Assembly (NCBI GenBank): GCA_016929355.1
Contig: JAFGJA010000322.1
Coordinates: 1-48,058, forward strand
Origin: Anaerolineae bacterium
GTDB lineage: Bacteria; Chloroflexota; Anaerolineae; Aggregatilineales; Aggregatilineaceae
Reading direction: 5' to 3'
DNA: 48,058 nt
This document shows, in pieces, positions 13,704-43,393 of this stretch (position 1 is the stretch's first letter; the number at the start of each line of letters is the position of its first letter). The position numbers and the translations under genes were made by a program. Under the pieces are notes generated by a model. That model was not told the origin of the DNA. It was given only the letters and a program-made list of their open reading frames with translations, and did not search any database.

Positions 13704-16376
13704 TTAGAATGTCATCATGCCCGCTTGCCCACCGAAACCGTAGTCATCCGGGTCTTTCAACAGATGGTACACAACACGGTCCTGGGGCATGGGTTCACCT
13801 AAATCAAAGCCCGTGCGCTGGTGAAGAGTCAGCATACTGCCGGGCGTCATCACCCGCGATTGAATGATCTGCTCACGCTGGTTCCATGCGTCAATCCGCA
13901 CCTGGCGCTGATTTGACATACGATCCGTATCACAGGTAATACGCAAGCGTGTGATCGGCGCTTCACGCGGAAGTTGGCGACGCTTTAAGGTGATGGTGTT
14001 GGAATTTTTCGCATCAAGACTGAAATGCCATATTTCATCTTTTTCATTATGAGACAAATCCATCCGCGCGATGACTAACGTGCCATGCGCCGGATGCTTC
14101 CTGCGCCGCCGTTGGCGAATAACTATGGCGGTAGTCAGTCCGATCACCAGCAGCACAAGCAACACAACGCCCGCATAAAACACATAAAGCATGGGATTAG
14201 TCACCCGCTCGACGGTCACGCGGAAATGGCTGGCCTGTGGATTAAGAACATAACGATCCTGCAATTCGCCCTGCATCGTAACTTCAAGATGATACGTACC
14301 TTTGGGGAGATCGCTCACGCTGGTGTAGTACTGTCCGGGTTGGGGACCTGTATTGAAAACCAGATCGCGCACTTCACCCGATTTGTCATCGAACAATTGC
14401 ACCGTCAACACCGGCGAGCCAGCAGGATCAGCCAATGGGGGCACAGCGATCAGTGTGTTATCATCATCCAGGCGCGTTTCAAAGACAATGTCCAGGTCCG
14501 TTGCAGTTAACGGCGGAAAACCTTCTGTCACGTTTTGTTCGGTATTCGGGGCCGGTTCCAGCACAAAAAGGCTAATCATGATGCTGGGCAGCACGCTCAC
14601 CGGCCCAACACGCACAGAGCCAATGGGCGCACTCGATTGTGCGGACACATCCAGATAGAGCGAGCCATTTGTCATCGCTTCGGTCCAAGTGATCCCGGCG
14701 GTATACTGACCATCACCATCAGGATCGGTAAATTCAACTGGCACGATCTCTGTATCCAGCGCATCAACGACTCGGGCGGTGATCTGAATAGCTGAATCTT
14801 GCACGATAGTGCCCGCATCATCCACCACACGCGCGGTTAATTGCACCTCCTCACCGACCAGATAGGCATCAGCCGGAAAATCATCTACTTGCAAGATCAA
14901 TTCACTTACAGTGAACGTATTGAGATCGGATTGGTCAAAAATAATATAATCTTCCCCGGTGGGCAATGTAACACTTGCCGTCAATCCCAGGGTATAGGTC
15001 CCATTCAGGTCTGCCGGATAAACAGTGCTATATGCACCGGGTTGCGTGGATGTAAGCGGCAAGCGCGTTTCAGTCCCATCTGGCAGAGTTAGACGCGCTT
15101 CGACAGCAAGGTCATACGGCGGTGGATAACTGTTGAGTGGAGTTTGGGTCGTGGCGTCAGTCAATGTCACCGTCAACGGCACATCATCGTACTGCCGGAA
15201 TGACCCGCCTGTCACATCTGCCGTTACATCAAGTGGAATCAATTCAAGATAGATGTCAATTCGGTCATTTTGCGACCCGACTTCAAATACCCAATCACCC
15301 GGCACAGGGTTAACAATCGTCCACACTTCAATGGGGCGATCCTGATTGCTGATCGTTACGTCGGGATCGTTAGCCGCCAATGGCAGACCGTTGGATTGTG
15401 TGATCGACAGAACCCCCGGCGAATTACTCGACTTAAACAGCGAGACACGCATTAATCGCTGGTAAGGTGGCACAAAAACAGTATTTATGCCGGGAACAAG
15501 CTGTTGGGCATCGGTCAATCCGCCGCTGGTTTGGTCTTCGCCTGTCGAGGAAACCACCTGGGCCAGAATGCGATAAAACTGCACACCAACCTGCTGATTT
15601 GTTTCCACGAGCGTAGCGCGTTCGGGCAGACCAACAACAGATTGCCAGTCAGCGCTGCGCGTTTGCCAGACATCGCCCGTCGCATCAAGAGCCAGAACAT
15701 AAATCTGGTAGGCGAGTGGAGGAAAGGCACGCTGCACCAGATCGTTCACCGTATCCATGTGCTGCTGCTGGCCGAGGGCGCTTTCACACGAAAAAAAGTT
15801 CGGGCCGGATACGACACAGGGTTGCCCATCCGTGAACAAAATGATCACGCGCAAATGCGACTGATTCGGGTCAGGGGGCAGCGTGTCAAACATGGTTTGG
15901 GCCATCTCAAACGCCGATACAAAGTTAGTATTCCCCAGATTCACTGACCCAAACGTATTGGCTGAAAGTTGGTCGAGAATACCCTGGCGCGTGTTATCCC
16001 ATTCCATCTGGGTAGGTGCGACCTCTGTCCAGTTGAGCGTAACCACCGCATCATCGCCAAAGTTAATGACGGCGGCGCGCACAGTCAGATCGGGCGCAAC
16101 AAGCAGCCGATACTCACCAAGCGTATCCAGCGCATACTGCACCGCTTCAAACCGCAGTTGCAATGGATCGGTTGCTTCGCGGTCAGGATAACCAAAATCT
16201 GCGCCGCCCATGCTGCCGCTTTGATCGACCAAAAACAGCAGGTCCAGACCAGTATAGGCGGGTGATGTATCTTGGGCCTGGGCTAAACTACATACTCCCC
16301 CCTCTACCAGCCAGATCACAATCACCAACAGGCTGCTTATCCATCGTTTATTCATCGTTGTCATCGTCCTCGTCAT
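13704..16376 (-). CDS. vWA-domain single-pass membrane protein (paralog A) with Ig-like repeats and a conserved cytoplasmic tail
   Basis: Three in-frame ATGs at 16376, 16364 and 16355. The last gives an ideal signal peptide MNKRWISSLLVIVIWLVEGGVCSLAQAQD. MIDAS LLFLVDQSGSMGG. FGSVNLGNT, FTDGQPC and VPPYQ motifs shared with paralogs B and C. TM YAGVVLLVLLVIGLTTAIVI, then RRRRKHPAHGTLVI tail ending ...MMTF. Confidence 0.85.
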   Translation of the reverse strand: MTRTMTTMNKRWISSLLVIVIWLVEGGVCSLAQAQDTSPAYTGLDLLFLVDQSGSMGGADFGYPDREATDPLQLRFEAVQYALDTLGEYRLLVAPDLTVRAAVINFGDDAVVTLNWTEVAPTQMEWDNTRQGILDQLSANTFGSVNLGNTNFVSAFEMAQTMFDTLPPDPNQSHLRVIILFTDGQPCVVSGPNFFSCESALGQQQHMDTVNDLVQRAFPPLAYQIYVLALDATGDVWQTRSADWQSVVGLPERATLVETNQQVGVQFYRILAQVVSSTGEDQTSGGLTDAQQLVPGINTVFVPPYQRLMRVSLFKSSNSPGVLSITQSNGLPLAANDPDVTISNQDRPIEVWTIVNPVPGDWVFEVGSQNDRIDIYLELIPLDVTADVTGGSFRQYDDVPLTVTLTDATTQTPLNSYPPPYDLAVEARLTLPDGTETRLPLTSTQPGAYSTVYPADLNGTYTLGLTASVTLPTGEDYIIFDQSDLNTFTVSELILQVDDFPADAYLVGEEVQLTARVVDDAGTIVQDSAIQITARVVDALDTEIVPVEFTDPDGDGQYTAGITWTEAMTNGSLYLDVSAQSSAPIGSVRVGPVSVLPSIMISLFVLEPAPNTEQNVTEGFPPLTATDLDIVFETRLDDDNTLIAVPPLADPAGSPVLTVQLFDDKSGEVRDLVFNTGPQPGQYYTSVSDLPKGTYHLEVTMQGELQDRYVLNPQASHFRVTVERVTNPMLYVFYAGVVLLVLLVIGLTTAIVIRQRRRRKHPAHGTLVIARMDLSHNEKDEIWHFSLDAKNSNTITLKRRQLPREAPITRLRITCDTDRMSNQRQVRIDAWNQREQIIQSRVMTPGSMLTLHQRTGFDLGEPMPQDRVVYHLLKDPDDYGFGGQAGMMTF

Positions 16377-17757
16377 TCCACCAGGACCGATCTTTATGCT
16401 GCATCTCCGCTAAAAAGGTGATCACGTTGGATAAGGTTCCATGCTCTTCGATGAGACGATCCAGATCGCGCCGCGCGATTCGCATCTGGCTGCCATCCGG
16501 CAAAGTCAGGGGCAAAGGGGCCAGTTCGTGATCGGGGTTCGTTTGCTGGGGCGTATTCGGCGCTTGTGGAAGCGCACGCGGCCCACGCGGACTGAGATCG
16601 GTAGGGCCATTGGTAAGCCGGCGCGGATAGGCAGGTCGATCATCGTCGGGCGGGGTAGCTTCCATACGGTTGATACGAGGAGACTGCGGTTCATCCTCCC
16701 AACCGCGCGGGGGATTTTTAGAGGCCCCCACTTTTTGCGTCAGGCGGCTTAACCACCCGCCGCCGCGCGGCCCCTTCGTTTCATCTTCATCGGGGATACG
16801 TGGCGCTTGACCGCGCTCAGACTGCGTTTGGCGCGGCGACGAGGCTGCGGGAGCATAGCCCAGACGCGATATAGCCGGATCGACAGAGGGGAAAGCTTCC
16901 CGTCCCTGGGCAAATACTTCGCGTTCCGAAGTCGAGCGATGATCATCATTGGCAGCAGAAACATTATTCGACATTTCAACAGCCCCAGATTCCGCTCGCC
17001 CGCCCTGCGGCTCCTCTATACTTCGGTTTTCTGTCTGATCTTCCTCAAGTGTGCGTGAACCCGACAGGCCGCTGAGTTTGTGCGTCCATGCGCCGCGCCC
17101 AGAAACACCAACTGGCCCACCGCTATCTGCGTCATCTTGCTGCTGAGTGCGATCACCCGCGCCACCCAGAATCGAAAACGATCCACCGCTGCGTTCACTT
17201 TCCCACACATCTTCATTGTCTTGATCGTTAGTTTCATCTGTCTCAAGCAGATCGGTTTCAGGTGTGTCTAACTCCTGGTCATCGTCGGTTTCGGCTCCAC
17301 CCTCATCCTCGGCCTCCAAGTCTAGACCCGAATCAGGCGCATGGTTGTCGTCTTGATCGGGTTCAGGGTCGTTGGCTACTACGTCGGATTCCTCGCCTGT
17401 CAACCATGCAATAAGCTGTGATCGCGCTTCGTCTGGATCGTCCTGGGCTTTCGCATACCACTGCCGGGACAAGTCATTGAGGATAATCTGTGGGGTTTCG
17501 CTCTCTGCATCGAGAAGTTCCGCCAGTCCAGCTTGCGCCAAAATAGGGAAAAACTCTTCCAGAATTTGGATGATCTGAATTTCACCGCGCAGCCCACCCT
17601 CAACCGGAAACCGTGACGGATCGATTTGATCGCAGATCATCTCCGCATCTAGTGGACAATCATTGCCGCCTTGGCTATCCGCATCAACAACCCCTACCAA
17701 GAGATCAACGAGATGATCATCGTCCAGCTCAAAATCGGCAATTGTCCAGATTGCCAT
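16348..17757 (-). CDS. Hyper-acidic, largely disordered protein with small folded N- and C-terminal domains (hypothetical)
   Basis: The ORF track starts at TTG 17799. ATG 17757 is preferred because GAGGAG sits 6 nt upstream (MAIWTIADFELDDD...). Long D/E/Q/G/P-rich low-complexity core. C-terminus ...LPDGSQMRIARRDLDRLIEEHGTLSNVITFLAEMQ...DEDDDNDE. The 3' end overlaps the next gene by 8-29 nt. Confidence 0.65.
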   Translation of the reverse strand: MAIWTIADFELDDDHLVDLLVGVVDADSQGGNDCPLDAEMICDQIDPSRFPVEGGLRGEIQIIQILEEFFPILAQAGLAELLDAESETPQIILNDLSRQWYAKAQDDPDEARSQLIAWLTGEESDVVANDPEPDQDDNHAPDSGLDLEAEDEGGAETDDDQELDTPETDLLETDETNDQDNEDVWESERSGGSFSILGGAGDRTQQQDDADSGGPVGVSGRGAWTHKLSGLSGSRTLEEDQTENRSIEEPQGGRAESGAVEMSNNVSAANDDHRSTSEREVFAQGREAFPSVDPAISRLGYAPAASSPRQTQSERGQAPRIPDEDETKGPRGGGWLSRLTQKVGASKNPPRGWEDEPQSPRINRMEATPPDDDRPAYPRRLTNGPTDLSPRGPRALPQAPNTPQQTNPDHELAPLPLTLPDGSQMRIARRDLDRLIEEHGTLSNVITFLAEMQHKDRSWWNDEDDDNDE

Positions 17758-17824
17758 ATATCGCTCCTCTATTTCGCCCCCTGGATACCCGGCATTCAAC
17801 CGGGCATCCAGGCTGCGCTGTATG

Positions 17825-20800
17825 TTAACCGAAGATATTCTTGATGAGAATTCGTGTAATCGCGATCAAGTCTTTGATGATTTGCTCATTGCCAAGTTCT
17901 GGCTTGCTATACTGGGCCAACCAACCCTCACCTTCTGAGCGATCCCAGGTATCCAGCGTTTTCAATAATGCCCGGTTTTTCGTATTCGAATACCGATCAT
18001 AGATCGCGCGGGCGTCATCTTCGCTGATACGCGGCTGCCATACACCTGCCGATGGATCCACCCAGTAACCGACAAACTTCAGCAACCCGTCCATAAGAAC
18101 ACCGTTGGGCAGATGCTCAAAATCTCGTTTCGGAATAAGCACCTCATTACCGGACATTTCAGGCATAGTGAAGACCCACCCCTGCCCGGTTTCCTGAAGT
18201 TCCTCATTAACCACCGCCGCCAGCAAATACGCTTCGGCCTTGATGCGGTTCGCCAGACCGGTCACTACTATCGGATTGAACATGCGCGCCGATTGCTTGA
18301 TCTTAACCAACTGTCGTTCGTAAGACAATGCCGTTGCATCTGCTTCAAACACCGCCGAACGCCCCGGCCGCTGAACTGTTCGGACCAACCCCATCTCATC
18401 CATATAGGTGTCGCGGGCGATATTCAGGCTGTTGACAGCATCAATAGTCAGCGCGTCCGCCGTTTGAATCAGCGTCAGCGTGAAACGATCCGTCGTATCC
18501 AACACCTTGAGTTTTTCTTCGTCGTCGTTCAATTTCTCCCGGCGCAAACGGCGCTTCAAATCGTCGATGCGTTCGATGCCTTGATGCGCCGACAAAACGA
18601 TCCCCGGCTGTAAAGCGGTTGCCCGTTCATCGGACATTAACAACACCCCCGAATTTTGTAGCAACCGTGCGAGAGTCGTGGCAATCTCATCCTCACCTAA
18701 TGGGCCTTTGTTCAGAATTTTTGCCAGCCCTTCCTGTTCAGGAATTTCGCGGGCAAAGTAACGTCCCAGGAACAGGATTTTTTCTTCAAAGGTCGCCACA
18801 TCTGCCGGATCAAACGTCACTTCAACTTCCTGGTCGTTGTCATCCCCTGTGCTCGGCAGTTTTAGAACTAATGCCGGTTTGAGAGATTCATCAACTTTCC
18901 AGTAAAGCTGGCGCACACCCTTCTCAATCGGGGTTAGATTATCGCGTTCGTCCGGTTTGAGCATATACGTATCATACCAGACTTCGCGGAGAGGTTCGCC
19001 CTCATTGGTCGTGGTGATGTAGGATCGTGTCTGCAAGTTTTCCTGCTGATTCCACATCTCAGTGATCCGGGCATAGCGCGCAGCGAGGCTCACATGCAGC
19101 GATCCCTGTTTTGCCCCCATCCCCAACGCATCACCCACACTCACCAGATGATCGCGTACTTCACCTGCGATGCTGGCAAATACCTGTAATTGGCCGACCA
19201 CCGGATGTTCAGGATCATCCATAATTTGGCTGATCTGGGAAGCGATTCCCTTCAACGAACCGGGGCCTCCTTCTGCCGCGAGTGTATCCAGGAATGCTTT
19301 TGCTAAACCGATCTTTGCGCCACGACGCAGGACGGGATCGATGGGTTCGGAGGTGCGCGCGTGTTGACCATTCAGTAGCACGCCTACAACCTGTGCTAAC
19401 CACTGCCGCCACGCCTCGTTATCTCGCTCCTCGCGCACTGAAAGCTTGCGCGCAGCACGGCGCACCGTTTCAGCATCATTAGAAACCACACCATTGAAGA
19501 TAAGCCGCCACTCTTTACTCAGTTGCGGTGTACCAAAACGTTCGCCCAGGAACGCCTGAACCAAATCAGCCGGCGCTTGCCGACCACTGATGAACTGTTC
19601 TTTGGCTAGTTCAGGCGCGTAACGCGGCGTTTCCTGGGTATTGCCCATCAACAGCAGTTGCAAGACACGGCGCGCATAACGCACAGTGATGTCTTCCAGC
19701 AAATCGGCAAATGGCAGACGGAACTGGTAAAGCCCCAGGCTGCTGACTGCTAGCTTCCGTTCTCGAAGCTGGACATTAGTTGACACACCGCGCATGGTAT
19801 CACGCCATTGGTCCAGCCCGCCCCGATTGGCGGCTGTATCTAACCACAGCGCGATCCCATCCGCCAAAGACGGATAGATGCCCTTTTCAGGCGCAATGTG
19901 GCTCAAAGACGCTGGTTGGCGCTCACCATCATAGACGTAAACGTCATCAAACAGACTGTCATCCACGTCGCCATCAAAGACCATCGGCATCGCCGGGTCC
20001 GACGTGTATGCCATCGGGAAGGCCGCGCCAATCGCCAGTTGGAACCGTTCCGTTTCACGCAAAGCAGCGATAGTATTTGTCGCGCGACTGAGATCACTGC
20101 GCTGGCGACCTTGCGTGGCGCGATCAGTCAACAGATGACCGACCAGCCGCACTTCCACCAAACCCAGACTTTGCTGCAACTGGCGAACCAGATAAGCTAC
20201 ATCCAGGAATGCGCCCGATCCCACATCGTCACTGAGATCAGTCACCAACAATACGTGCAAACGCTCAGGATCATGCAGCTTTGAGGTTTTGGCTAACTCG
20301 CGTTCGGCCTCCAACACCGTCTGCGCCGCCGTTTGTAACCGTTGCCACAGGTTATCATCGCCCGGTTTGCGCAGATTGTCGATTAAGGCCATACGTCCCA
20401 TAACCCGCCGGTCCTGAAAACCGGTCTTAGGATCGGTAGAACTGCGGATTTCGAGCATCGTCTGGTGATCAATCCATCCTTTGTAGGTTGGATCATCGTT
20501 CACCACGTCGGTCAGTCCACGCAGATTTTCCTGCCATGCCAGAATTTCGTGATCGTCAAGTTGTAACCCATCCGTTTCACGCTCAAGGTGTCGCGCTTGA
20601 CTCCCGTCTAGAATGCAGAGAAGACCGACATTCTGCGAGGGATCGCCTAATTCGGCATTCGCCAGCGTCTTTTTCAGTTGGGTCAAGACCTGCCACCCCG
20701 GATTACCCAGACCAATCACCAGTGAGCCGCGCGGCTTCCACAAAGGCTGCAATTGGCCGCTAGGCAAATTGTCATCCGGACCTAACGGTTCGCGTTGAGG

Positions 20801-23377
20801 CTGCAACGGCGGCAGTTCGGGCAGTTCTTCATCATAGTCCGGCTTACGTAACCAGCACGCCAGCAGCATCAAAGGCAGCAGAGGCAGCAAGCACAGCAGA
20901 GGCAGCGGCCACATTCGGTTTCTCCACTCATCCAGCAAACTTGTCTGGTTAATAGGTTCGCCCCAATAGGGCAGATGTTCAAATACACCTGGTTGGGAAG
21001 CGCCACGCAATTTATATGCGGTGCTGGTGGTCCCATCCGCATAAACATCAACCACGACAATATCAAAGTTCGGATCATAGGCGGTAGTGTTAAACGCCAA
21101 TTTGGTCCCGTTCCGATTCCAGGAAGGCCAGGAATTGCTGGCATTAGGGGCATTACCCGCAATCGGTCCCGCAACGCCTGTTTCCAGATTCAGCAACCAG
21201 ATTTCAGCTTGCGGATCGGAATAGGTGGTTGCGTTCTGATGATGCGTAAAGGCCAACCAGCGACCATCGGGCGAGAATGCCGGGTAGTAGTTCAAACCGT
21301 CATTGGCACTTGCGCCAACAATCGGAATCGGCACGGCGTTCAGCGCGGGGTCTGATGCGATCATGTAAATATCACTCTGATTTAGCGCCAACAAACCAAC
21401 CTCAAGATTGCCTCGGTTGGCGCGTACAAAAGCGATATTCTGACCGTCCGGGGTCCAGGCCGGCATCAGCACCCCGTTTTGGGCGTCCGATGCGTTCTGA
21501 AACTGCTGCCATCCATACGCGGGGGCATCACGGTCAAAAACGAACAATTCCGCATTACTGGTGGTTACAGCCAGTTTGCGACCATCCGGCGAAAACGCGC
21601 CGTATATTGCGTCAATCGGCGGCAAATCCTCGATCAAATCGCCATCAAATTCGGTCAGACGTAAGGCATCATTATCCGGTACAGGGCCAACAATTGCCCC
21701 CACTATTTCTGCCTCACTGCTCACAAAATGGCAACCCAGGCAACTCGCCGTTTCGTTCAAAGAAGATACCTGCGCCGGTTCATCGGCGGCCAAATCACTA
21801 TGCGTTAGGAAAATTCCGCGCTGGCTGCCATCCATCCGCCAGAAGTACACGCTTTCCGGCACATCACACAACACACCGGCGACAGGCTGTAACAACAAAA
21901 ACAGGAGAATCAATAACAGGATTAAGAACAACAAACGCAGCAACCAACACAGCCAATCCCAGATAGTCTTGTGTTTTTTGCTTAATAAGTTGTTCAGCGC
22001 CCGCCACAACAGATACACTCCGATCAGGGCTACGATGATGACCACAATCCAGGGCAGCCAATCCCACCACCCCGGCGCACAAAAATCAAGGCCCAGATCG
22101 GTTGTTCTCCCAATTGTCTCCGTAGGACCGGGATCGCGCAGAACCGCATTCGGTGTTGCCGTTGGTGACGCGGTTGGGGTTGGCGAGGGTGTAGGTGTGG
22201 GCGTATGAGTGGGCGTCGGTGTTGCCGTCGGCTGTAAAATCGTGACTATCGGTCCAATTTCTGTAGCGGCTGCCGGAACGACCTGTCCACAGGGGAAATA
22301 TTCAACCGCCACGGTCCCCACCGTCGCATTGGAGATTGCCATCAGACCGCGCAGTTCGGTTTGTAACTCGACATCCTCACCACTATTCACTTGATCCACA
22401 GTCCATTGAAGCACGTTCGGCGCAGTAGCGGGACCGTTTAACGCCGCATTCGGCACACTAGTGCCAGGAACGATCTGGAAAATTTCTGTATTGACCGTGT
22501 ACGTGATGACCAGGTTATTCGCCACAATTTGGGGCTGAATTTCGCGCGCGATCTGCTCATAGAGTATCGTCAGTTCGCTGGCGCTGGTCGCCAGATACGC
22601 ATCGTCCGGCGAATCGGCAATATCACGCAACGTATCCTCATCTACATCAGCCGGGTCGCCCAGACCAACGGTAATGATACTCGCGCCTGTCAACTGCCGC
22701 GCACGTTCAGCTTCGCGCCGGACCGCACTGGTATCGGAGTCTTCACCGTCCGACAATAACACAATCACCGGATGGGCGTCGCCCTGGTAATTCGCGCTGG
22801 CGCTGGCAAGAATATCGGTTGCCAGTGTTAACCCGTCAGCGATATTCGTGCTGCCACTGGTACGCAGATCATTAATCGCATTTTCCAGTACAGTCTGATC
22901 ACTGGTCAGGTCAACTTCCATGTCGGCATCAGAGTTAAATGACACGATTGCGATTTGATCTGAGGCAGACGATCCTGGGACGAAGTTAAACTGCCGGATA
23001 AACGTCAAAGCCGCCTGTTTGGTCGCATCCAGTTTTGAAATATTTTCCGGCGTATCTTCATCCATGCTGGAAGATGTATCGATTACCAAAACGGCATCCA
23101 CCGGAATTTCACGCGGCACAGCCGGGCATTCACCGCCTTGCAAAGTGATCGTCACCAAAAAGTGATCTTGACCGTCATCATTCACCGGGAATCCTGTTTG
23201 CGGGTCCCCCTGGCGCGCGATGCTTTCCAACCGGATGGTGATTGGGCCAATACCCGCATCTTGCGCCTGACTCGGCATCCCCCATACGGTAAGCGCCAAT
23301 GCTACTAGTATCACCAACAACATGCTGCGCCGACGCAGCAGCGCGTATGATGTAGTCCTAACAGATCTCATAAACAT
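17825..23377 (-). CDS. 1850-aa fusion: signal peptide, vWA, PT linker, 2 TM, PD40/TolB-like beta-propeller (with CxxCH), TM, tubulin-like domain (semi-degenerate loops)
   Basis: Signal peptide ...LTVWGMPSQAQD. MIDAS VLVIDTSSSMDED (nt 23066-23080). PT linker 22151-22231. TMs WLPWIVVIIVALIGVYLLW and WLLRLLFLILLLILLFLLL. PD40 repeats FSPDGRKLAV, WTPDGQNIAF, FSPDGRWLAF, WNRNGTKLAF. TM PLPLLCLLPLLPLMLLACW. Then SLVIGLGNPGWQVL, LLVTDLSDDVGSGAFLDVAYLV and NTIAALRETERF. Confidence 0.8.
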   Translation of the reverse strand: MFMRSVRTTSYALLRRRSMLLVILVALALTVWGMPSQAQDAGIGPITIRLESIARQGDPQTGFPVNDDGQDHFLVTITLQGGECPAVPREIPVDAVLVIDTSSSMDEDTPENISKLDATKQAALTFIRQFNFVPGSSASDQIAIVSFNSDADMEVDLTSDQTVLENAINDLRTSGSTNIADGLTLATDILASASANYQGDAHPVIVLLSDGEDSDTSAVRREAERARQLTGASIITVGLGDPADVDEDTLRDIADSPDDAYLATSASELTILYEQIAREIQPQIVANNLVITYTVNTEIFQIVPGTSVPNAALNGPATAPNVLQWTVDQVNSGEDVELQTELRGLMAISNATVGTVAVEYFPCGQVVPAAATEIGPIVTILQPTATPTPTHTPTPTPSPTPTASPTATPNAVLRDPGPTETIGRTTDLGLDFCAPGWWDWLPWIVVIIVALIGVYLLWRALNNLLSKKHKTIWDWLCWLLRLLFLILLLILLFLLLQPVAGVLCDVPESVYFWRMDGSQRGIFLTHSDLAADEPAQVSSLNETASCLGCHFVSSEAEIVGAIVGPVPDNDALRLTEFDGDLIEDLPPIDAIYGAFSPDGRKLAVTTSNAELFVFDRDAPAYGWQQFQNASDAQNGVLMPAWTPDGQNIAFVRANRGNLEVGLLALNQSDIYMIASDPALNAVPIPIVGASANDGLNYYPAFSPDGRWLAFTHHQNATTYSDPQAEIWLLNLETGVAGPIAGNAPNASNSWPSWNRNGTKLAFNTTAYDPNFDIVVVDVYADGTTSTAYKLRGASQPGVFEHLPYWGEPINQTSLLDEWRNRMWPLPLLCLLPLLPLMLLACWLRKPDYDEELPELPPLQPQREPLGPDDNLPSGQLQPLWKPRGSLVIGLGNPGWQVLTQLKKTLANAELGDPSQNVGLLCILDGSQARHLERETDGLQLDDHEILAWQENLRGLTDVVNDDPTYKGWIDHQTMLEIRSSTDPKTGFQDRRVMGRMALIDNLRKPGDDNLWQRLQTAAQTVLEAERELAKTSKLHDPERLHVLLVTDLSDDVGSGAFLDVAYLVRQLQQSLGLVEVRLVGHLLTDRATQGRQRSDLSRATNTIAALRETERFQLAIGAAFPMAYTSDPAMPMVFDGDVDDSLFDDVYVYDGERQPASLSHIAPEKGIYPSLADGIALWLDTAANRGGLDQWRDTMRGVSTNVQLRERKLAVSSLGLYQFRLPFADLLEDITVRYARRVLQLLLMGNTQETPRYAPELAKEQFISGRQAPADLVQAFLGERFGTPQLSKEWRLIFNGVVSNDAETVRRAARKLSVREERDNEAWRQWLAQVVGVLLNGQHARTSEPIDPVLRRGAKIGLAKAFLDTLAAEGGPGSLKGIASQISQIMDDPEHPVVGQLQVFASIAGEVRDHLVSVGDALGMGAKQGSLHVSLAARYARITEMWNQQENLQTRSYITTTNEGEPLREVWYDTYMLKPDERDNLTPIEKGVRQLYWKVDESLKPALVLKLPSTGDDNDQEVEVTFDPADVATFEEKILFLGRYFAREIPEQEGLAKILNKGPLGEDEIATTLARLLQNSGVLLMSDERATALQPGIVLSAHQGIERIDDLKRRLRREKLNDDEEKLKVLDTTDRFTLTLIQTADALTIDAVNSLNIARDTYMDEMGLVRTVQRPGRSAVFEADATALSYERQLVKIKQSARMFNPIVVTGLANRIKAEAYLLAAVVNEELQETGQGWVFTMPEMSGNEVLIPKRDFEHLPNGVLMDGLLKFVGYWVDPSAGVWQPRISEDDARAIYDRYSNTKNRALLKTLDTWDRSEGEGWLAQYSKPELGNEQIIKDLIAITRILIKNIFG
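22151..22231 (-). repeat. Pro/Thr-rich linker-coding low-complexity tract
   Basis: Encodes PTATPTPTHTPTPTPSPTPTASPTATP, between the vWA domain and the TM hairpin of the fusion protein. Confidence 0.85.
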
Positions 23378-23487: not shown

Positions 23488-26400
23488 TTACAGTCGCCGA
23501 CTTCCACCCCGAACTTTCTCGTCATAGCGCGCTTCGATGACTCGCCGCAGCCGATCCATTTCACGATCCAGCGCCAAAATCGCAATGGTGTACAAGTCGT
23601 AATCTTCCTGGCGACGACGCTGCTCATCATGCGCATCGCCGCCGGTCAGATTGACACCGGACATGGATAAACGCTCTTGCAGTTCAGGCAACGCAGCCGC
23701 CAATTCCTGACGGAGTTCGCGCGCCATATCGTGCCGGACGACCAGTTCCGCAACACCTAACTGGCGCTGATTACCGGCGGTTCCATTGCCCTCGCGCCCC
23801 AGGAATGCCTCACGATCCCAATTATCCAGCATCAACTCGCCGGTCTCACGATTAACAGAGGGCATGAAAGCTTCAACCCACATGCGCAGTTCTTCATCCA
23901 CCACCACCTGATCCCCATGCGTTTCAAGTAACGCCAGATTATCCCGATCAACCCGGCGGAGCGTGTCTTCGCGTCGCGCCTGGCGTAAGTAATCCAACAC
24001 ACCAGGATAAGGAATCGGGTTACGCATGGTTGCACCGGGCCGTGTGCCGCGAATATCTTCCTCAAGGATGACGTATGTAATCATCGCATCTAGCAGCGAG
24101 GGACGATCAGAGGGTTCCGTGAGATACCAATCAATGATCTCCTTCTTACGTGACTCAAGATCGGGCGCACGCAGTTGCCAGGCAAAGTACGTGCGTGTCT
24201 CATCTCCACCTTCTTCACGGCGGACAATAATCCGGTGTGCCAACAGGAACAGAAAATCGAGGAAGCGCTCTTCATTTTCCAGCAGCAGCACGACACGATC
24301 CGCGAGCAAGCGTCCCGTTTGGCGTAACCGGCGCACAACATCTTTTTCATACTCGATGGCGCGCACTTCTGCCGGGAAAATATGAGTCGTCTGGCGGGTA
24401 TCCCAGGGCAACTCGTTGTAACGTTGGTAGCACTCACCAAATGCGGATATACCGCGCAGTTCGATCAATTCCGCCGTGCTCAGCAGCGTGAGGCGGAAAG
24501 GATTCTCACACTGTGCTGTCTTGAGTGTGGCATAATCTTGTTCGCTAATATCGCCCAAACCTTTTTCGGCTCCCAGGCGGCGCAGCACATTGCCCAAAAA
24601 ACCTGTTTCGTCAGGATTTTCCGAATTATGGCTTGCCAGCAGCACATTGGTCACGATCCGACCTTCAACCTCAGGCCGTTCTGTAATTGAAAGCAGATGC
24701 CCACTCCGCCGGGCCAGATCAATAGCTAGTTGATCTTCATTATCAAGATACTGCTGCATCAAATACTTCAACACACTCTCGCGCTGCACAGCATCGGCAA
24801 AAACACCACGCATATAACCAAGCATCGCCTGGAGATTGCGCTCGGCCCAGCGTGCGCGCCGCTCCTTACGGAACAAGGCAACGGCATCACCCTCACCAAA
24901 GCCGCAGTCCACCACCAACTGATCGCCCTCGACAGCCACCGACCAATTCCAGGCATTGAACATGCGCTCACGCTGCTCTGCCGTTTCAACATATTCGACA
25001 TAACGTCGATTTTCCCACTCAGCATCATTGATAACATGGTGATTTGCCAGTGATTCGGCTTGCCCACGTTCATCCTGCACGCGCCGTGTCCCGCGCAGCA
25101 GTTCGTTATACAAGCCATTGGTATCCGTCGCCAGTACCAACGCCCAACTTTGGAGTTCATCCCGCACCTGATCCAGAAAATCGTAGATATGGCGGAAAGC
25201 CCGCGCCACTGCCGCTCGCGCAAACTCGGTGCGGTAGAATTCGACATATTCTTCCACGCGCGCCAAATAATGATCTTGAGCCACCAGCGCCGGATCGCGC
25301 TTGAGTAAACTTCGTTCCGAAGCCTTAGCCTGCATATCTTGCTGCGCCCGATCCAGGCCAGTTTGCAGATTGCTGCGCATACTGGTGACATAGGTATCGA
25401 TACCCGCGCGCACCTCTTCCATCAAATCACCAACAATAGCGAACAAATTGCGCAACTCCTCGACAACAGCCAGAGTCCAACCCAGTTTGCCAGACTTGGC
25501 CTGAATGGGATCGCGCGTTGAGGTTAATGATCCATTGAGAGTATGCATGATGTACGCGGCCATGTATGCGCGGAAGCGGTTGGTTTGTAAATCAACAAAA
25601 CGATTCAGCGCATCACCGTAGCGACCACCCTGCCGCCCCCCGCCCGTATCCACCGGGCCAAGCTGTGAGGTAATGTAGCGGTCCGCTTTGGTTGCTATAT
25701 CACGCCAGTCTATCGTCGGATCGCCCTGAGGGCGACGTTTATCTGATACCTGTGCATGATTGTAAATCGTGTCTTCGATGATCTGGCGCGTGTCATTGAT
25801 CGCCCCCATCGTCACCGGATCCGCACCAACGGACTGTGGCACGAGCATATTCAACCAGGTGCGCAGGTCATAAGCGCCCAATTCACGCACCGCATTCTGA
25901 CGGTTGAGGGCTTCACGCGCAAAGAAATGATGGGCCTGTTCCCATAATCCCGTCGGCATAATCATCCGGTTCTCGTCACGCGGGTCGGGGAGCGGCGTGT
26001 GTTTGGTCATCAACTGCTCAACGATGAGCACCGGTTTTTCGCCCCGGTACTCTGGGTTATCCTCATAGCTGACACGGAGCATATAGCCATCATCATTATA
26101 GGTCTGCCCCGGCACAATCGCTTGCACAATTTCCTTGCCCAACCGGTACGACCAGGCTTCGATCATTTGTTGGACGGGCAAAATGATGGAATACGCGCCT
26201 AAAGAGCTAACCATTGCCTGCTTGCCAACACGTCCCTGGCGTTCAGCGATAGCGTTTGGCATATTAGCCAGCACCTGCTCATTGACTTCCCCGAAGCTCG
26301 GATCGACAAAACTCGCAATGGCATCAGCGACTACTGAGGCTGATCCGTCTTTAAGGCTGCGCGCATTCATGCGCATTTCGCCTTCACCATCCAGGATGTA

Positions 26401-27231
26401 CACAAAATCGTAGAGTTTTTCGCGGTTCTTGGCTCGCCAGATCGAACGATTGCCACCTGAACGCTCGCCATGATAGTACATCGGGTAGCCGTAACGATAA
26501 TCTTCACTCAAGGTGAAGCGTTGCAGTTCGCGCATGGCCGCAAATGCGCGCCCTTTAGCGGATTCAATCTTATTCGAGTCCAGATCGCGGGCGAACGCCT
26601 GCGGCAAATAGAAGAAACCACGCAGGGTGATATTAATGTTGTTGTTCGCCGCCACCCGCCGGATGATATGCGGCACATCAAGAAACAAACCAGCCCCCGT
26701 ACCACCAGCCATTGACCCGACGATCATCACCAGGATCGTATTACCAGTTTGCCGCGCGAGGCTGGTCAACTTGGTATCAAGCACCGTTGCGACGGGTGAA
26801 TTAGCTGGTTGGGCAACTGAACGAAACAAAGCCAAACGCCCCAACTGCCGGAACATACCAGCGCCTTTATCCAAGTTAAACATGGAGCGCGGCAGTTCCT
26901 TCAAATAACGTTCAGCCAACAACCAGGACCGAATTTGAGGATATTCTTCAGTGTCCGCGACGAGACGCACCATTTCATACGCATCACCGCCAACGTGGAC
27001 ATACTCATACGGCTCTAACGAGACAGTTCCGACGCCTGTGCCCTGCTCCCGAATCATCCCATCGGCCCCAACGCCGACTATCGGCTCATCCGCAGTATCT
27101 AACACGGCTAACCCAATTCGCTTGGGAATCTCGTTATTGTACATATCCATCAACTGGCGCTTAACATGCACCAGTGTCCACGCACCAGACCCCCCCAACC
27201 CGATAATCAATGCCGCTAGTGGCTCCGCCAT
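23488..27231 (-). CDS. Giant tubulin/FtsZ-like GTPase (Tubulin_2 / FtsZl-1 type), canonical nucleotide loops
   Basis: AAGGA SD. ALIIGLGGSGAWTLV. MIVGSMAGGTGAGLFLDVPHII (nt 26689-26709). FYLPQAF...GRAFAAMRELQRF. No TM segments. Confidence 0.8.
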   Translation of the reverse strand: MAEPLAALIIGLGGSGAWTLVHVKRQLMDMYNNEIPKRIGLAVLDTADEPIVGVGADGMIREQGTGVGTVSLEPYEYVHVGGDAYEMVRLVADTEEYPQIRSWLLAERYLKELPRSMFNLDKGAGMFRQLGRLALFRSVAQPANSPVATVLDTKLTSLARQTGNTILVMIVGSMAGGTGAGLFLDVPHIIRRVAANNNINITLRGFFYLPQAFARDLDSNKIESAKGRAFAAMRELQRFTLSEDYRYGYPMYYHGERSGGNRSIWRAKNREKLYDFVYILDGEGEMRMNARSLKDGSASVVADAIASFVDPSFGEVNEQVLANMPNAIAERQGRVGKQAMVSSLGAYSIILPVQQMIEAWSYRLGKEIVQAIVPGQTYNDDGYMLRVSYEDNPEYRGEKPVLIVEQLMTKHTPLPDPRDENRMIMPTGLWEQAHHFFAREALNRQNAVRELGAYDLRTWLNMLVPQSVGADPVTMGAINDTRQIIEDTIYNHAQVSDKRRPQGDPTIDWRDIATKADRYITSQLGPVDTGGGRQGGRYGDALNRFVDLQTNRFRAYMAAYIMHTLNGSLTSTRDPIQAKSGKLGWTLAVVEELRNLFAIVGDLMEEVRAGIDTYVTSMRSNLQTGLDRAQQDMQAKASERSLLKRDPALVAQDHYLARVEEYVEFYRTEFARAAVARAFRHIYDFLDQVRDELQSWALVLATDTNGLYNELLRGTRRVQDERGQAESLANHHVINDAEWENRRYVEYVETAEQRERMFNAWNWSVAVEGDQLVVDCGFGEGDAVALFRKERRARWAERNLQAMLGYMRGVFADAVQRESVLKYLMQQYLDNEDQLAIDLARRSGHLLSITERPEVEGRIVTNVLLASHNSENPDETGFLGNVLRRLGAEKGLGDISEQDYATLKTAQCENPFRLTLLSTAELIELRGISAFGECYQRYNELPWDTRQTTHIFPAEVRAIEYEKDVVRRLRQTGRLLADRVVLLLENEERFLDFLFLLAHRIIVRREEGGDETRTYFAWQLRAPDLESRKKEIIDWYLTEPSDRPSLLDAMITYVILEEDIRGTRPGATMRNPIPYPGVLDYLRQARREDTLRRVDRDNLALLETHGDQVVVDEELRMWVEAFMPSVNRETGELMLDNWDREAFLGREGNGTAGNQRQLGVAELVVRHDMARELRQELAAALPELQERLSMSGVNLTGGDAHDEQRRRQEDYDLYTIAILALDREMDRLRRVIEARYDEKVRGGSRRL

Positions 27232-27264: not shown

Positions 27265-29985
27265 TTAGAATCTCGCTTCCGTATTGTTGCCAATAATATA
27301 TTCCACTAAATAACCAGGGCGCTGCACCCGATGCATGATCCGATCTTCGCCTTCCATAATCGGCAGACTGCTGCGCGGAATTTGATTTTCATCTGCGCCC
27401 CGAATACGGATGTCATCCAGGTAGAAGGCTTTTTCTTCGCTCACTTTGGGATCGTTATGGGTAGACACAACAATCTTTTCGAATTCCCCGATATTACGGA
27501 AAGTCTTTTTGTTTACCCCGAAGGCAGCGAGCGAAATTGTCGTCACAATGTCTTCATGGCCTTGTGTATCGCGCGTTTTAAGGACTAACGTGCCTTGCAA
27601 TGGATTTTGACGGCGTCGTTGATAGATAACCACCGCACCGATCACAATAGCCAGCAGACCAATGATCAACCCCAAGATCACGATCCCACCAACTATGGTT
27701 ACGATTGACCATTCGCGGTTGTGTTCAACTACTGCCCGTGACGGATTCCAGTCATAATCGCCAACCAACGCCATTGCCGGCGATTGAACACTGGCTTCGA
27801 CCTTATAATCGCCACGCCCCCGGTGCTCCAGGGTGGTCTGGTAGATACCTTTGCTCACTTCGACCATCTGCGTTGTGAGGTCTTCGGATTCATCGCCGTG
27901 CTTCAAGATCACTGTCGGGCGCGTCTCCGTCCCACTGGTGAGATCGCTTAACGAAACCGCATTGTTCGATTCATCTCTGATTTCAACCTGAATAACGAGC
28001 GGGGTTTTACCCAGAAACTCAAACGGCCATACCTCTTCAGACGATCCATTTTCAGGACGCAAAACCAACACACGCAAATCTATGATCGGGCGAACTTCCA
28101 ACGGCAGCAGGGTCGAACCAACAGCATCAAATGTGCCATCCGTCGCCGGCCACCCAACCGCTACATCGACCACATACTGCCCCGGCTGGTCAATGACCAG
28201 ATCAGACAACACCTCACCCACATTGGCTGTCGGGCTATTAGGGTATACAGTATCCTGTAACACGACGGTTCCAGCCTGGTCGGTAGCTGTCACTTGAAAG
28301 GCCATATCTGCGGCGGCGGGCAAAGGCTGCCCCGATACTTTCGTGCGAATTTCGGCGCGCAAGCCCACTGGCTGCCCTGCGCGTTGGCTGGCGGGATTTA
28401 GCCCGTTGATGTCGACATAAGACTCCTGAATGGTGATCATGTCACGCTGAGTGCCCTGCGCGTCAATCACGACATTTTTCATCGTCGCATCTCGCAGCAC
28501 ATAGACAACCTGACCAGCATTATCGAGATAACTCGCATCCAGGCGCACTTCGAAATCACCAGAGAAACGTAAGAATTCGGTGGCCGTAAACTGGTTGATG
28601 CCTGGTGCATTAGCCGTATCCAGCGCCAATGGAATCTCATAATCAGGCGGCCCCTGGGGTGTCGTGATCCCGTCGGTGCGGTAGAGTTTGAGGACCACAT
28701 CCAGTTTATAATTCGGATTGAGCGGATCGCCATAGACAGCAAGCGGCACACCTGTCCCATCCACAATGCGCGCTGTGAATGTGATCGGGGTATACATAAA
28801 CAGTTCGGGCTGCCCCGGCGTGGCGGGGATCACTTCGGCTGCCCCCACAGCGCTGATCAGATCGGTCACCGCTTCGACATTTTGAATCAAATTCGAGGGT
28901 TGAACCTGGGATAAATCCAACTGCCACTGCCCCGGTTCAGGCAAGAGAATTTCATACGTTTGGATTGCAGTTCCCACCCCCTGTGTTTTAACAGGAGATT
29001 GTGTGCCATCAGGCCGCCGGACAATCTCGTTGGTGATTGGGGTATTATCGGTTTTGAAAATATTGATGCGCAAAAACTGCTGGTAAGGCGGTACATCAAA
29101 GACACCAACACCGTTATTCAGTGGAATGGTCTGTCGCCGTACAGCGCTGCTGATCTGGCTGATCAGGTCAGTCAGAATGCGATTGAACTCACTAGAAATT
29201 TCTGCCCCATTCATCACCTGAACATACTGTTCCATTGGGTTACAGCCTGCCGCTTGGTTGGCGCATACAATCGTCTCCCAAGCCGTTTGCCATTTGGTAA
29301 AAAATTGATTGTTGGCATCAGAGATAACCACATAGAGTTTGTAGTCAGGGAAATTGGTGCGCATTAACTCTTCAATACGCGCCAAATGAGCGGTTTTAGT
29401 CTGATCGTTGCAAGTATTAGATGCACACGGTTCCCCATCGGTCAGCAATACAATGGCCTTGAGATGCTGGGTTCCCGTTGCCGATGGAGCAGGAGCCTGA
29501 TCAAACATCTGCTTGGCTTCGCGTAGCGCTTCATACATATCTGTATTGCCCAGATTGACATTGCCAAAACGTTGATCAGAAATGTCTGTTCCCAAACGCT
29601 GCGCATCAGCATCTTGCAAATAGCTGAGATTTGTCCAATCCAACAGCAACCGTTGTGAATCACCGAAACCGAACAACCCCATGTTGACTTCCAGTGGATC
29701 ATAGTTTTTCACAAGGTCCTGAAATTGGTAAAGCCATTGCAACGAATATTGCGGAGCCTGGAATCGCAACCCATCGGGGTCTGTACCATTTCCCCAATAG
29801 TCAGGCGCACCACAGGGAATGCCACAGGTGCTACCACTTTGATCGACTACAAACAGCATATCGACGCCGCTGTATACTGGCGGTGAAGGCGACTGCGCCT
29901 GAACCGATGTGCTCGCAACGTGTAAACCTGCAACCAGCACCCCCAACGCGCCGATTAAAACGAGCCACTTCCTTACATTAGCCAT
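27265..29985 (-). CDS. vWA-domain single-pass membrane protein (paralog B) with a conserved cytoplasmic tail
   Basis: The ORF track starts at GTG 29994. ATG 29985 has AAGGTGA 5 nt upstream. Signal peptide MANVRKWLVLIGALGVLVAGLHVASTSVQAQS. MIDAS MLFVVDQSGSTCG. FGNVNLGNT, LTDGEPC, VPPYQ. TM IVGGIVILGLIIGLLAIVIGAVVI. Tail RRRQNPLQGTLVL... ending TEARF. Confidence 0.85.
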   Translation of the reverse strand: MANVRKWLVLIGALGVLVAGLHVASTSVQAQSPSPPVYSGVDMLFVVDQSGSTCGIPCGAPDYWGNGTDPDGLRFQAPQYSLQWLYQFQDLVKNYDPLEVNMGLFGFGDSQRLLLDWTNLSYLQDADAQRLGTDISDQRFGNVNLGNTDMYEALREAKQMFDQAPAPSATGTQHLKAIVLLTDGEPCASNTCNDQTKTAHLARIEELMRTNFPDYKLYVVISDANNQFFTKWQTAWETIVCANQAAGCNPMEQYVQVMNGAEISSEFNRILTDLISQISSAVRRQTIPLNNGVGVFDVPPYQQFLRINIFKTDNTPITNEIVRRPDGTQSPVKTQGVGTAIQTYEILLPEPGQWQLDLSQVQPSNLIQNVEAVTDLISAVGAAEVIPATPGQPELFMYTPITFTARIVDGTGVPLAVYGDPLNPNYKLDVVLKLYRTDGITTPQGPPDYEIPLALDTANAPGINQFTATEFLRFSGDFEVRLDASYLDNAGQVVYVLRDATMKNVVIDAQGTQRDMITIQESYVDINGLNPASQRAGQPVGLRAEIRTKVSGQPLPAAADMAFQVTATDQAGTVVLQDTVYPNSPTANVGEVLSDLVIDQPGQYVVDVAVGWPATDGTFDAVGSTLLPLEVRPIIDLRVLVLRPENGSSEEVWPFEFLGKTPLVIQVEIRDESNNAVSLSDLTSGTETRPTVILKHGDESEDLTTQMVEVSKGIYQTTLEHRGRGDYKVEASVQSPAMALVGDYDWNPSRAVVEHNREWSIVTIVGGIVILGLIIGLLAIVIGAVVIYQRRRQNPLQGTLVLKTRDTQGHEDIVTTISLAAFGVNKKTFRNIGEFEKIVVSTHNDPKVSEEKAFYLDDIRIRGADENQIPRSSLPIMEGEDRIMHRVQRPGYLVEYIIGNNTEARF

Positions 29986-30021
29986 TATCTTCACCTTAAT
30001 ATTTCATTTGATTAAAAACAA

Positions 30022-42444: not shown

Positions 42445-42488
42445 AAAACTATATGCCTCCGTCCTACCTGCTACGCACACTACTTAGT

Positions 42489-43370: not shown

Positions 43371-43393
43371 AACATCCCCCACATTGAGCACAT

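Follow-up and report, generated by a model that had tools for sequence, protein, structure and literature searches.

Comparative genomics first delineated the FtsZl1 (Tubulin_2) family of tubulin-like proteins, together with their vWA partners, in 2010, and a study of 2020 returned to them. The operons that encode them also include genes for GTPases and kinases, and a role in envelope or membrane remodelling was the original proposal for FtsZl1 (Makarova & Koonin 2010, PMC2875224). The only fusions in that study have a kinase at the N-terminus, apart from a disrupted archaeal FtsZl1 that begins with transmembrane (TM) helices. Those GAP1-N2 DO-GTPase systems that include tubulins contain two of them and a pair of vWA proteins, the first linked to YtkA and the second a multi-TM protein with an extracellular vWA domain, and the tubulin theme was restricted to Firmicutes and Actinobacteria (Kaur, Burroughs, Iyer & Aravind 2020, PMC7159879). 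In the literature searched, no report testing the function of any FtsZl1/Tubulin_2 member was found, nor any report of GTP binding, GTP hydrolysis or polymerisation by an FtsZl1. The present analysis concerns a 48,058-nucleotide contig of an Anaerolineae bacterium of the Chloroflexota (JAFGJA010000322.1, assembly GCA_016929355.1; the window), and within it a single gene (17825..23377, minus strand; the fusion) that joins a vWA domain, a beta-propeller, TM segments and a Tubulin_2 domain in one polypeptide. Earlier work has already described the association of vWA with FtsZl1, vWA partners that bear TM segments, and one archaeal FtsZl1 fused to TM helices (PMC2875224, PMC7159879), and the covalent ectodomain-TM-tubulin architecture appears to be the only new part. 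A vWA-TM-tubulin fusion was not found described in the literature searched, from which only these two papers surfaced. The original prediction for this DNA, made from the sequence alone, had been aware of no membrane-integral tubulin or FtsZ homologue with extracellular sensor domains; this apparently stands for the covalent architecture but has to be narrowed to accommodate the archaeal protein. With slightly better than an even chance, the fusion is a membrane-integral, nucleotide-impaired FtsZl1 subunit that couples binding by its ectodomain to the assembly of a canonical partner.

The fusion resembles the published FtsZl1 proteins (PMC2875224) in a Tubulin_2 match above the Pfam threshold, in a long helical region C-terminal to the tubulin-like domain, and in its neighbours, which are vWA proteins with an intact metal ion-dependent adhesion site (MIDAS), a divergent P-loop GTPase and many membrane proteins. 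It differs in that its tubulin-like domain forms the predicted cytoplasmic, C-terminal end of the protein, after about 840 residues of ectodomains and TM segments, and in that its glycine signatures are degenerate. Likenesses to the system of Kaur et al. (PMC7159879) include a DO-GTPase, at least two tubulin-domain proteins with helical tails, multicellular hosts and, less clearly, two classes of vWA protein, with YtkA appearing in the fusion loci as a faint match in one related locus (L002) only. In contrast to that system, the hosts are Chloroflexota, and a single polypeptide takes the place of the multi-TM vWA protein and the second tubulin, with the addition of a propeller preceded by a CxxCH motif. 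Moreover, GAP1 and FNIII families were undetected by Pfam in all open reading frames (ORFs) of the window (E up to 10 for the unannotated ones), a search that very divergent versions could escape.

Gene integrity, domain identities, folds, conservation, synteny and motif divergence were computed for the fusion and its relatives. The gene begins with ATG and encodes 1850 residues with 0 internal stops, confirming the single uninterrupted ORF claimed earlier; its base composition is even throughout, and full-length homologues exist. In order, the product carries a signal peptide, a vWA domain, a Pro/Thr-rich (PT) linker, a TM hairpin, a TolB-like beta-propeller, a third TM segment, a Tubulin_2 (FtsZl1) domain and a long helical tail. 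Pfam matches are to PF00092 for the vWA domain (residues 94-269, E 1e-24, 88 bits vs a cut-off of 23.8), to PD40 (E 2e-12) and to PF13809 for Tubulin_2 (residues 886-1239, E 1e-16, 61.5 bits vs a cut-off of 27), the last covering profile positions 1-355 of 356. Together with the fold comparisons below, these bear out the earlier assignment of vWA, propeller and tubulin-like domains. The motifs on which that assignment had drawn are likewise all present and in the order given: VIDTSSSMDED (residues 99-109), SKKHKT (466-471), RKPDYDEE (844-851), VIGLGNPG (887-894), DDVGSGAFLDVAYL (1050-1063) and AALRETE (1104-1110).

The tubulin-like domain (19661..20722, minus strand, as are all features of the fusion; residues 886-1239) is assigned by Pfam, by AlphaFold2 modelling and by Foldseek comparison. 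A model of residues 845-1850, built with AlphaFold2 from an alignment of 22 relatives, has a mean predicted local distance difference test score (pLDDT) of 87.4 and a predicted template modelling score (pTM) of 0.84. All 50 of its top 50 fold matches in the PDB belong to the tubulin/FtsZ superfamily (CetZ1, CetZ2, gamma-tubulin, TubZ, FtsZ), the best being CetZ1 (4b46; E 1e-4, template modelling score normalised to the target 0.50). No solved relative was found by a PDB sequence search with the tubulin-like domain alone or by a hidden Markov model search with a 10-sequence profile; the Tubulin_2 family of the fusion has no solved structure and is linked to the PDB by fold comparison only. C-terminal to the domain lies an extension (17825..19660, residues 1240-1850) that is mostly helical in the model, and residues 1541-1731 within it match residues 811-1009 of the product of the adjacent stand-alone Tubulin_2 gene (23488-27231) by BLAST.

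In the model, the positions of the T1- and T4-type loops fall at strand-loop-helix junctions, as in FtsZ, and the fusion departs from canonical FtsZl1 at both. The glycine-rich signatures expected there (T1 GxGGxG; T4 GGTG[ST]G) are absent from the fusion and its closest orthologues, which have GLGNPG and DLSDDVGSG. The T1-type loop reads LVIGLGNPG (20696..20722, residues 886-894) where canonical paralogues have GLGG[ST]G, and the T4-type position reads TDLSDDVGSG (20213..20242, residues 1046-1055) where they have GS[LM]xGGTG[AS]G. Across the fusion and its closest orthologues (36-62% identity), T1 takes the form GLG[NARV]xG and T4 the form [TAS]DLSD[DA]V[GS][SGA][GS], so that acidic residues at T4 replace the expected phosphate-binding glycines. 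Further downstream, a conserved NTIAALRETERF motif (20042..20077, residues 1101-1112), in which R1107, E1108, R1111 and F1112 are invariant, would be equivalent to the T7 loop/H8 region.

The gene directly upstream of the fusion encodes a stand-alone Tubulin_2 protein that matches GLGG[ST]G and GGTG[AS]G exactly, and this arrangement recurs in 9/9 loci for which upstream sequence is available, whereas exact GGTG[AS]G occurs in no fusion protein examined. In the window this partner (23488..27231, minus strand) is a canonical paralogue of 1247 aa with a Pfam E of 3.5e-41 and the motifs GLGGSG and GGTGAG. Related loci share a gene string that runs from a vWA (DQSGS) gene through a stand-alone Tubulin_2 gene (product about 1180-1250 aa) and the fusion to an unannotated gene (product about 500-600 aa) and a further vWA gene. 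A tree of the tubulin domains separates a clade of 3-TM, propeller-type fusions from a clade of their upstream partners; two simpler, one-TM fusions (P0025, P0029) fall outside the 3-TM fusion clade, and the placement of two others (P0020, P0021) is excluded because their segments were miscut. Five Tubulin_2 paralogues are encoded in the window, two of them canonical (5804-9076 and 23488-27231) and the others, 9073-11946, 36188-39412 and the fusion, degenerate. Each canonical gene is directly followed by a degenerate, membrane-associated one, 5804-9076 by 9073-11946 on the plus strand and 23488-27231 by 17825-23377 on the minus strand, and this adjacency suggests active/inactive pairs. The absence of the canonical glycine signatures from the fused domain, and its invariable position after a canonical stand-alone paralogue, point to a heterotypic partnership between the two, which the original prediction had not considered.

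The placement of these domains relative to the membrane was read from the sequence and from a Kyte-Doolittle hydropathy scan, by which the TM segments were called. A predicted signal peptide (23264..23377, residues 1-38) shows a basic n-region, a hydrophobic core and a putative SQA/QD cleavage site, and most homologues have a similar N-terminal hydrophobic segment. TM1 (21992..22060, residues ~440-462) and TM2 (21884..21952, residues ~476-498), both conserved in homologues, flank a short basic loop, NLLSKKHKTIWDW (21953..21991, residues 463-475), with 3 K/R in 13 residues, which is predicted to be cytoplasmic; the loop holds 3-6 K/R in every homologue compared, and the sequences that precede TM1 and follow TM2 carry an acidic or neutral charge balance. 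TM3 (20849..20914, residues ~822-843) is also conserved and is followed by a Pro/acidic, predicted cytoplasmic linker (20723..20848, residues 844-885) that begins with RKPDYDEE. The signal peptide, the K/R-rich TM1-TM2 loop and the basic residues after TM3 are conserved across homologues, and the N-terminal parts of relatives hold typically extracytoplasmic modules, such as CAP and DsbA-like thioredoxin domains, as well as PT linkers and conserved Cys residues. Because an N-terminal signal peptide followed by three TM segments fixes the parity, the C-terminus should lie inside, and we infer that the vWA domain and the propeller are outside and the tubulin-like domain inside.

The outward-facing part would begin with the vWA domain (22571..23098, residues 94-269), supported by Pfam and by alignment A3 of 12 homologues, in which the MIDAS residues D100, S102, S104, T177 and D210 are invariant. 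A PT-rich stretch (22148..22231, residues 383-410) is kept in the consensus of the same alignment. The propeller region (20933..21865, residues ~505-815) shows four PD40-type repeats by sequence, which agrees with the earlier count of at least four: [FW][ST]PDG-type motifs lie at about residues 596, 641, 702 and 753, the last being the variant WNRNG. AlphaFold2 modelled residues 495-829 with a pLDDT of 89.7, and the top structural match of this model by Foldseek is the TolB propeller (E 1e-15, template modelling score 0.63-0.65). Orthology to TolB was nevertheless rejected. The fusion scores 50.8 bits against the TIGR02800 TolB equivalog, vs a cut-off of 343.15, and NCBIfam adds only sub-threshold TolB-propeller similarity; because the score is so far below the cut-off, the region is described as a TolB-like fold and not as TolB. 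TolB of the Tol-Pal system thus shares with the fusion the propeller fold and PD40 repeats, but the fusion lacks the TolB N-terminal domain and its propeller sits between two TM segments with a CxxCH motif ahead of it.

This CxxCH motif (21728-21742, residues 546-550; C546-L-G-C549-H550, within SCLGCH) lies in the interval between TM2 and the propeller and is predicted to be outside. It is conserved in 17/18 sequences of alignment A2 and invariant in A3, the His being invariant and the Cys residues nearly or fully so, and it is found in about 60 of the 83 extended relatives. Alignment A3 also contains an invariant Met (M638) within the propeller. The module of CxxCH plus propeller occurs on its own in a 553-aa signal-peptide protein of Pseudodesulfovibrio (L014 5365-7026). 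No cytochrome family matched the fusion in the family profile searches; CxxCH is a motif of c-type heme attachment in what would be the right, extracytoplasmic compartment, and it may be a c-type heme site.

The fusion belongs to a sizeable family. A search of 5.8 billion proteins returned at least 15 full-length colinear homologues with 27-62% identity from independent Chloroflexota assemblies, the named sources of these homologues being metagenome-assembled genomes (MAGs) of Anaerolineae, so that the orthologous fusions sought in related genomes were indeed found. All of them have VWA, a PD40/Tricorn-type propeller and Tubulin_2, PD40 and Tubulin_2 being omitted in the precomputed list for P0011. 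Among GTDB species genomes, where related loci were found with alignment A3, the full-length form occurs in 6, all Chloroflexota MAGs (Aggregatilineales, Anaerolineae and unclassified Chloroflexota), one of which carries it on a contig of 3.68 Mb. An exhaustive HMMER search of 1.84 billion representatives gave 537 matches at E <= 1e-3 and 89 at E <= 1e-30; among the best 150 clusters (50% identity), the part N-terminal to the tubulin-like domain measures 250 residues or more in 96 and 600 or more in 79. By a crude scan, TM segments precede the tubulin-like domain in 80/83 extended relatives, most of which have a signal-like N-terminus. The ectodomains of these relatives are modular, combining CAP, DsbA-like thioredoxin, one or two vWA, PD40 propeller and CarboxypepD_reg domains, while the C-terminus is always Tubulin_2. 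CAP is fused N-terminally to a propeller-TM-tubulin arrangement in P0008, P0009, P0010, P0015, P0016, L007 11376-16436 and P0105-type proteins, and simpler fusions exist that consist of a signal peptide, vWA, one TM segment and Tubulin_2 (P0020, P0021, P0025, P0029). In an Aggregatilineales locus (L007 5992-16436), two tandem membrane-spanning fusions, vWA-propeller-Tubulin_2 (1793 aa) and CAP-propeller-Tubulin_2 (1686 aa), directly follow a canonical stand-alone Tubulin_2 gene.

A search for split orthologues, proposed alongside the original prediction, yielded no clean split. Two candidates were rejected as natural splits. One (P0018/L005, 10001-16283) is a CAP-vWA-propeller-tubulin gene broken by frameshifts; P0018 ends in Arg/Pro-rich out-of-frame sequence and the next L005 ORF begins within the T1 helix. 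The other (P0017/L006) has one in-frame TGA (L006 3497-3499) within a CarboxypepD_reg-like domain, which could be a nonsense mutation, a sequencing error or a recoding event. An ATG lies 18 nt downstream of this TGA.

If the favoured reading is correct, the fusion would, after signal-peptide cleavage, retain three membrane spans. Outside, it would expose a MIDAS-intact, metal-dependent vWA adhesion domain, a beta-rich region and the PT linker, and also, between TM2 and TM3, the TolB-like propeller with the conserved CxxCH ahead of it; inside, it would hold the FtsZl1/Tubulin_2 fold and the long helical tail. The fused domain would be a membrane-fixed, nucleotide-impaired partner whose task is to anchor, nucleate or cap the canonical FtsZl1, provided that the latter polymerises at all, and binding of a ligand by the ectodomain would be coupled to the place or time of cytoplasmic assembly. 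Such a scheme would follow an integrin-like logic with the cytoskeletal module covalently attached. FtsZ is tethered to the membrane by separate adaptors, FtsA, ZipA and SepF, that bind its C-terminal peptide. The role of SepF as an FtsZ membrane tether is described in PMC8178401. As in the predicted layout of the fusion, a member of the tubulin superfamily is thereby positioned at the inner side of the membrane; the difference is that the TM segments and ectodomains of the fusion are covalently part of the tubulin-like protein itself. Integrins, too, reach the cytoskeleton via adaptor proteins. They resemble the fusion, by analogy only, in having a vWA/I-type MIDAS domain and a beta-propeller outside and a TM link to the cytoskeleton, and weak Integrin_beta vWA matches occur in some relatives of the fusion; there is, however, no homology of overall architecture, and the propeller of the fusion is of the TolB/PD40 type.

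Several observations weigh against this reading. Impairment of the nucleotide site is not universal among fusions, since a sister clade keeps GxGGTG at T1 and a near-canonical GG[MF](G)SG at T4, and the loss of GTP binding by the fused domain, though probable, is deduced from motifs. In FtsZl1 generally, the T6-H7 elements were unidentified and filament formation was left open by Makarova & Koonin (PMC2875224). Partnership with the upstream paralogue is deduced from motifs and adjacency, not from direct interaction, and the tubulin-domain tree that separates fusions from partners is a rough neighbour-joining tree without support values. With regard to topology, the charge bias at TM3 taken by itself is ambiguous (2 K/R in the preceding 17 residues, RK just after); the positive-inside argument made earlier is upheld by the signal peptide, the charge of the hairpin loop and the extracytoplasmic modules, but is weak at TM3, so the parity rests on the signal peptide and the hairpin. 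The fused PF00092-type vWA domain has no BLAST similarity to the stand-alone vWA partners in the window, which are paralogues of one another, and the fusion is therefore not simply one split pair joined. Furthermore, in some relatives (P0008, P0015, P0016, L006 3518-7162) a second vWA domain follows TM3, next to the tubulin-like domain, or a vWA domain is inserted into Tubulin_2, and because this side is predicted to be cytoplasmic, the vWA-tubulin association is not exclusively trans-membrane. The Rosetta-stone argument with which the fusion had first been presented consequently survives in part: a conserved, real gene supports systems that span the membrane, but a specific vWA-tubulin contact is not supported. 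Where the vWA and tubulin-like domains are encoded by separate genes, any contact between the two products would have to be made by the short tail that the vWA protein extends into the cytoplasm.

The interpretation depends on the gene being real and on the tubulin-like domain being inside. The disrupted versions on two related contigs (L005 with frameshifts, L006 with its in-frame TGA) might raise the suspicion that a chimeric assembly or a frameshift in sequencing has wrongly fused a membrane vWA/propeller gene to a tubulin-like gene, but these breaks lie inside domains and not at a domain junction, many assemblies and sources, independent of one another, contain colinear full-length homologues with as little as 27% identity, one such homologue lies on the 3.68-Mb contig, and base composition is uniform across the ORF. 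A chimera was rejected on these grounds, homologues and base composition answering the concern raised in the original prediction, and the chance of any such artefact is negligible. An inverted topology, with the tubulin-like part extracytoplasmic, would find some room in the weak charge bias at TM3. It is highly improbable, given that the signal peptide and three TM segments force the C-terminus inside, that the TM1-TM2 loop is K/R-rich in all homologues, and that the CAP, DsbA-like, PT-linker and conserved-Cys features sit in the N-terminal parts; nucleotide-dependent proteins of the tubulin family are, moreover, cytoplasmic. It is also conceivable, if unlikely, that the fusion is a self-sufficient receptor whose tubulin-like domain binds nucleotide and self-assembles as a ligand-gated, tethered polymer, with the upstream paralogue merely co-regulated. 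The sister clade with its GxGGTG and near-canonical T4, the retained RE..RF motif and overall tubulin fold, and the helical C-terminal region shared with stand-alone paralogues all speak for this; the acidic DLSDD in place of GSxxGG and the N-P in T1 in the clade of the window fusion, and the canonical paralogue adjoining the fusion in 9/9 loci, speak against it.

Two further proposals concern what the system is for. A Chloroflexota version of the GAP1-N2-type DO-GTPase tubulin/vWA systems, acting in conflict or immunity, is somewhat unlikely on present evidence but compatible with a nucleotide-impaired subunit that couples ectodomain binding to partner assembly. The locus does contain a DO-GTPase, together with tubulin-like and vWA proteins comparable to those of the published system (PMC7159879), with the faint YtkA match on the downstream vWA protein of L002; the ectodomains are strongly modular, paralogues are numerous, and the hosts are filamentous Anaerolineae, which the same study lists as multicellular. 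Opposed to it are the failure of Pfam to detect GAP1, FNIII or a recognised effector domain in the window ORFs, the 0 matches returned by PADLOC for eight locus proteins (the fusion, three tubulin-like paralogues, two vWA proteins and the DO-GTPase among them), and the chromosomal position of the L007 locus. An equally tentative elaboration is that the ectodomains would sense an invader or a damaged neighbour and the tubulin-like proteins would form a response assembly. A role in remodelling the envelope or membrane, or in the cell-cell or sheath adhesion of filamentous cells, with the fusion tying the surface to an internal scaffold, is likewise rather doubtful. It was the original proposal for FtsZl1 (PMC2875224), the TolB-like propeller and the vWA domain are each typical of envelope- or adhesion-binding modules, and many membrane proteins are encoded in the locus, but the same contextual argument supports the conflict reading.

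The whole 48-kb contig is one system, in agreement with both published descriptions, that of the vWA/FtsZl1 operons (PMC2875224) and that of the tubulin-containing GAP1-N2 DO-GTPase systems (PMC7159879). On the plus strand the gene order is a 4-TM protein, a protein with a signal peptide and two TM segments, 3143-5782, 5804-9076, 9073-11946 and 11974-12996. On the minus strand it is a 1427-aa protein, a Metallophos protein, 39412-42480, 36188-39412, and proteins of 382, 663, 467 and 527 aa, and then the vWA gene 27265-29994, the Tubulin_2 gene 23488-27231, the fusion, a 483-aa protein, the vWA gene 13704-16376 and the CAP gene 12963-13685. The stand-alone vWA protein upstream of the canonical partner (27265..29994, minus) has a signal peptide, the MIDAS motif DQSGS, a TM segment at residues 771-789 and a cytoplasmic tail, and the upstream position of such a gene is conserved in related loci. 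A second (13704..16376, minus) has a signal peptide, DQSGS and a TM segment at 735-753, and its counterpart in L002 carries the faint YtkA match; a third (39412..42480, minus) has a signal peptide, DLSGS and a TM segment at 868-886. A vWA-like membrane protein (3143..5782, plus) is recognised by motif only, with a signal peptide, VILLDDSST, a PT linker, a TM segment at 715-733 and no Pfam match. In all four, the signal peptide is accompanied by DxSx[ST] at residues 38-53 and a single TM segment about 120-150 residues before the C-terminus, and because the stand-alone vWA and vWA-like proteins thus combine a signal peptide, vWA, a C-terminal TM segment and a tail, the logic of vWA outside and tubulin inside fits the whole locus. 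The claim that a vWA gene precedes a tubulin-like gene three times elsewhere in the locus also proved correct (39412-42480/36188-39412, 27265-29994/23488-27231 and 3143-5782/5804-9076), the vWA member of the third pair being identified by its signal peptide and DxSxT motif and undetected by Pfam.

Of the remaining tubulin-like genes, the canonical paralogue on the plus strand (5804..9076, 1090 aa) has a Pfam E of 9e-54 and the canonical motifs, GGTGAG among them. The degenerate one that follows it (9073..11946, plus) has GLGEDS and SLTDPFASG and an internal hydrophobic hairpin at about residues 480-525; this double hydrophobic segment resembles a membrane hairpin inside the helical region, and a similar one is present in P0020, P0021, P0025 and P0029. 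The degenerate paralogue on the minus strand (36188..39412) has GIGRIG, SLDELVGSA and a Pfam E of 1e-10. The DO-GTPase (11974..12996, plus) matches DO-GTPase2 (PF19993, E 1e-9) and DO-GTPase1 (PF19975, E 4e-8) and has the Walker A motif GTSRAGKT. The 3′ end of its gene overlaps that of the convergent CAP gene by 34 bases. The latter (12963..13685, minus) encodes a small TM-anchored CAP-domain protein, and in other genomes CAP is fused to the propeller-tubulin architecture, so that the system has two fusion links. Encoded directly downstream of the fusion, the 483-aa protein (16348..17799, minus) has no family match; unannotated genes occupy its position in L002 (498 aa) and L001 (617 aa), matched by position only. 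Nothing convincing was found by Pfam at E up to 10 for nine unannotated neighbours of the fusion. The 382-aa protein (35023-36171, minus) has a glycine-rich GKGMVGAIY stretch and a weak APH/kinase-like match (E 0.014), and the Metallophos phosphatase (42489-43391, minus) is in the same operon; the two may be a phospho-regulatory pair, as noted for FtsZl1 operons. The 1427-aa protein (43394-47677, minus) heads the minus-strand gene string and has no significant family match.

The fusion family fixes the geometry of the system, with binding domains predicted outside, a tubulin-like module inside and a canonical paralogue always adjacent. It comprises at least 80 clusters at 50% identity, so far from Chloroflexota only, and would be the first large group in the tubulin superfamily with its own TM segments and ectodomains. 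A bolder proposal, possible but less likely than not, is that these proteins are the first family of integral-membrane tubulin/FtsZ receptors, in which modular ectodomains (vWA, CAP, DsbA-like and a TolB-type propeller with a CxxCH that may bear heme) are connected across the membrane to a pseudo-GTPase domain that nucleates, caps or anchors a filament of the canonical FtsZl1 encoded next to it. If true, a tubulin-like polymer in the cytoplasm would be under the direct control of binding or redox state outside the cell, and filamentous Chloroflexota would possess a prokaryotic, covalent counterpart of integrin-to-cytoskeleton coupling. As such a group, the family bears on how cytoskeletal proteins became coupled to the cell surface.

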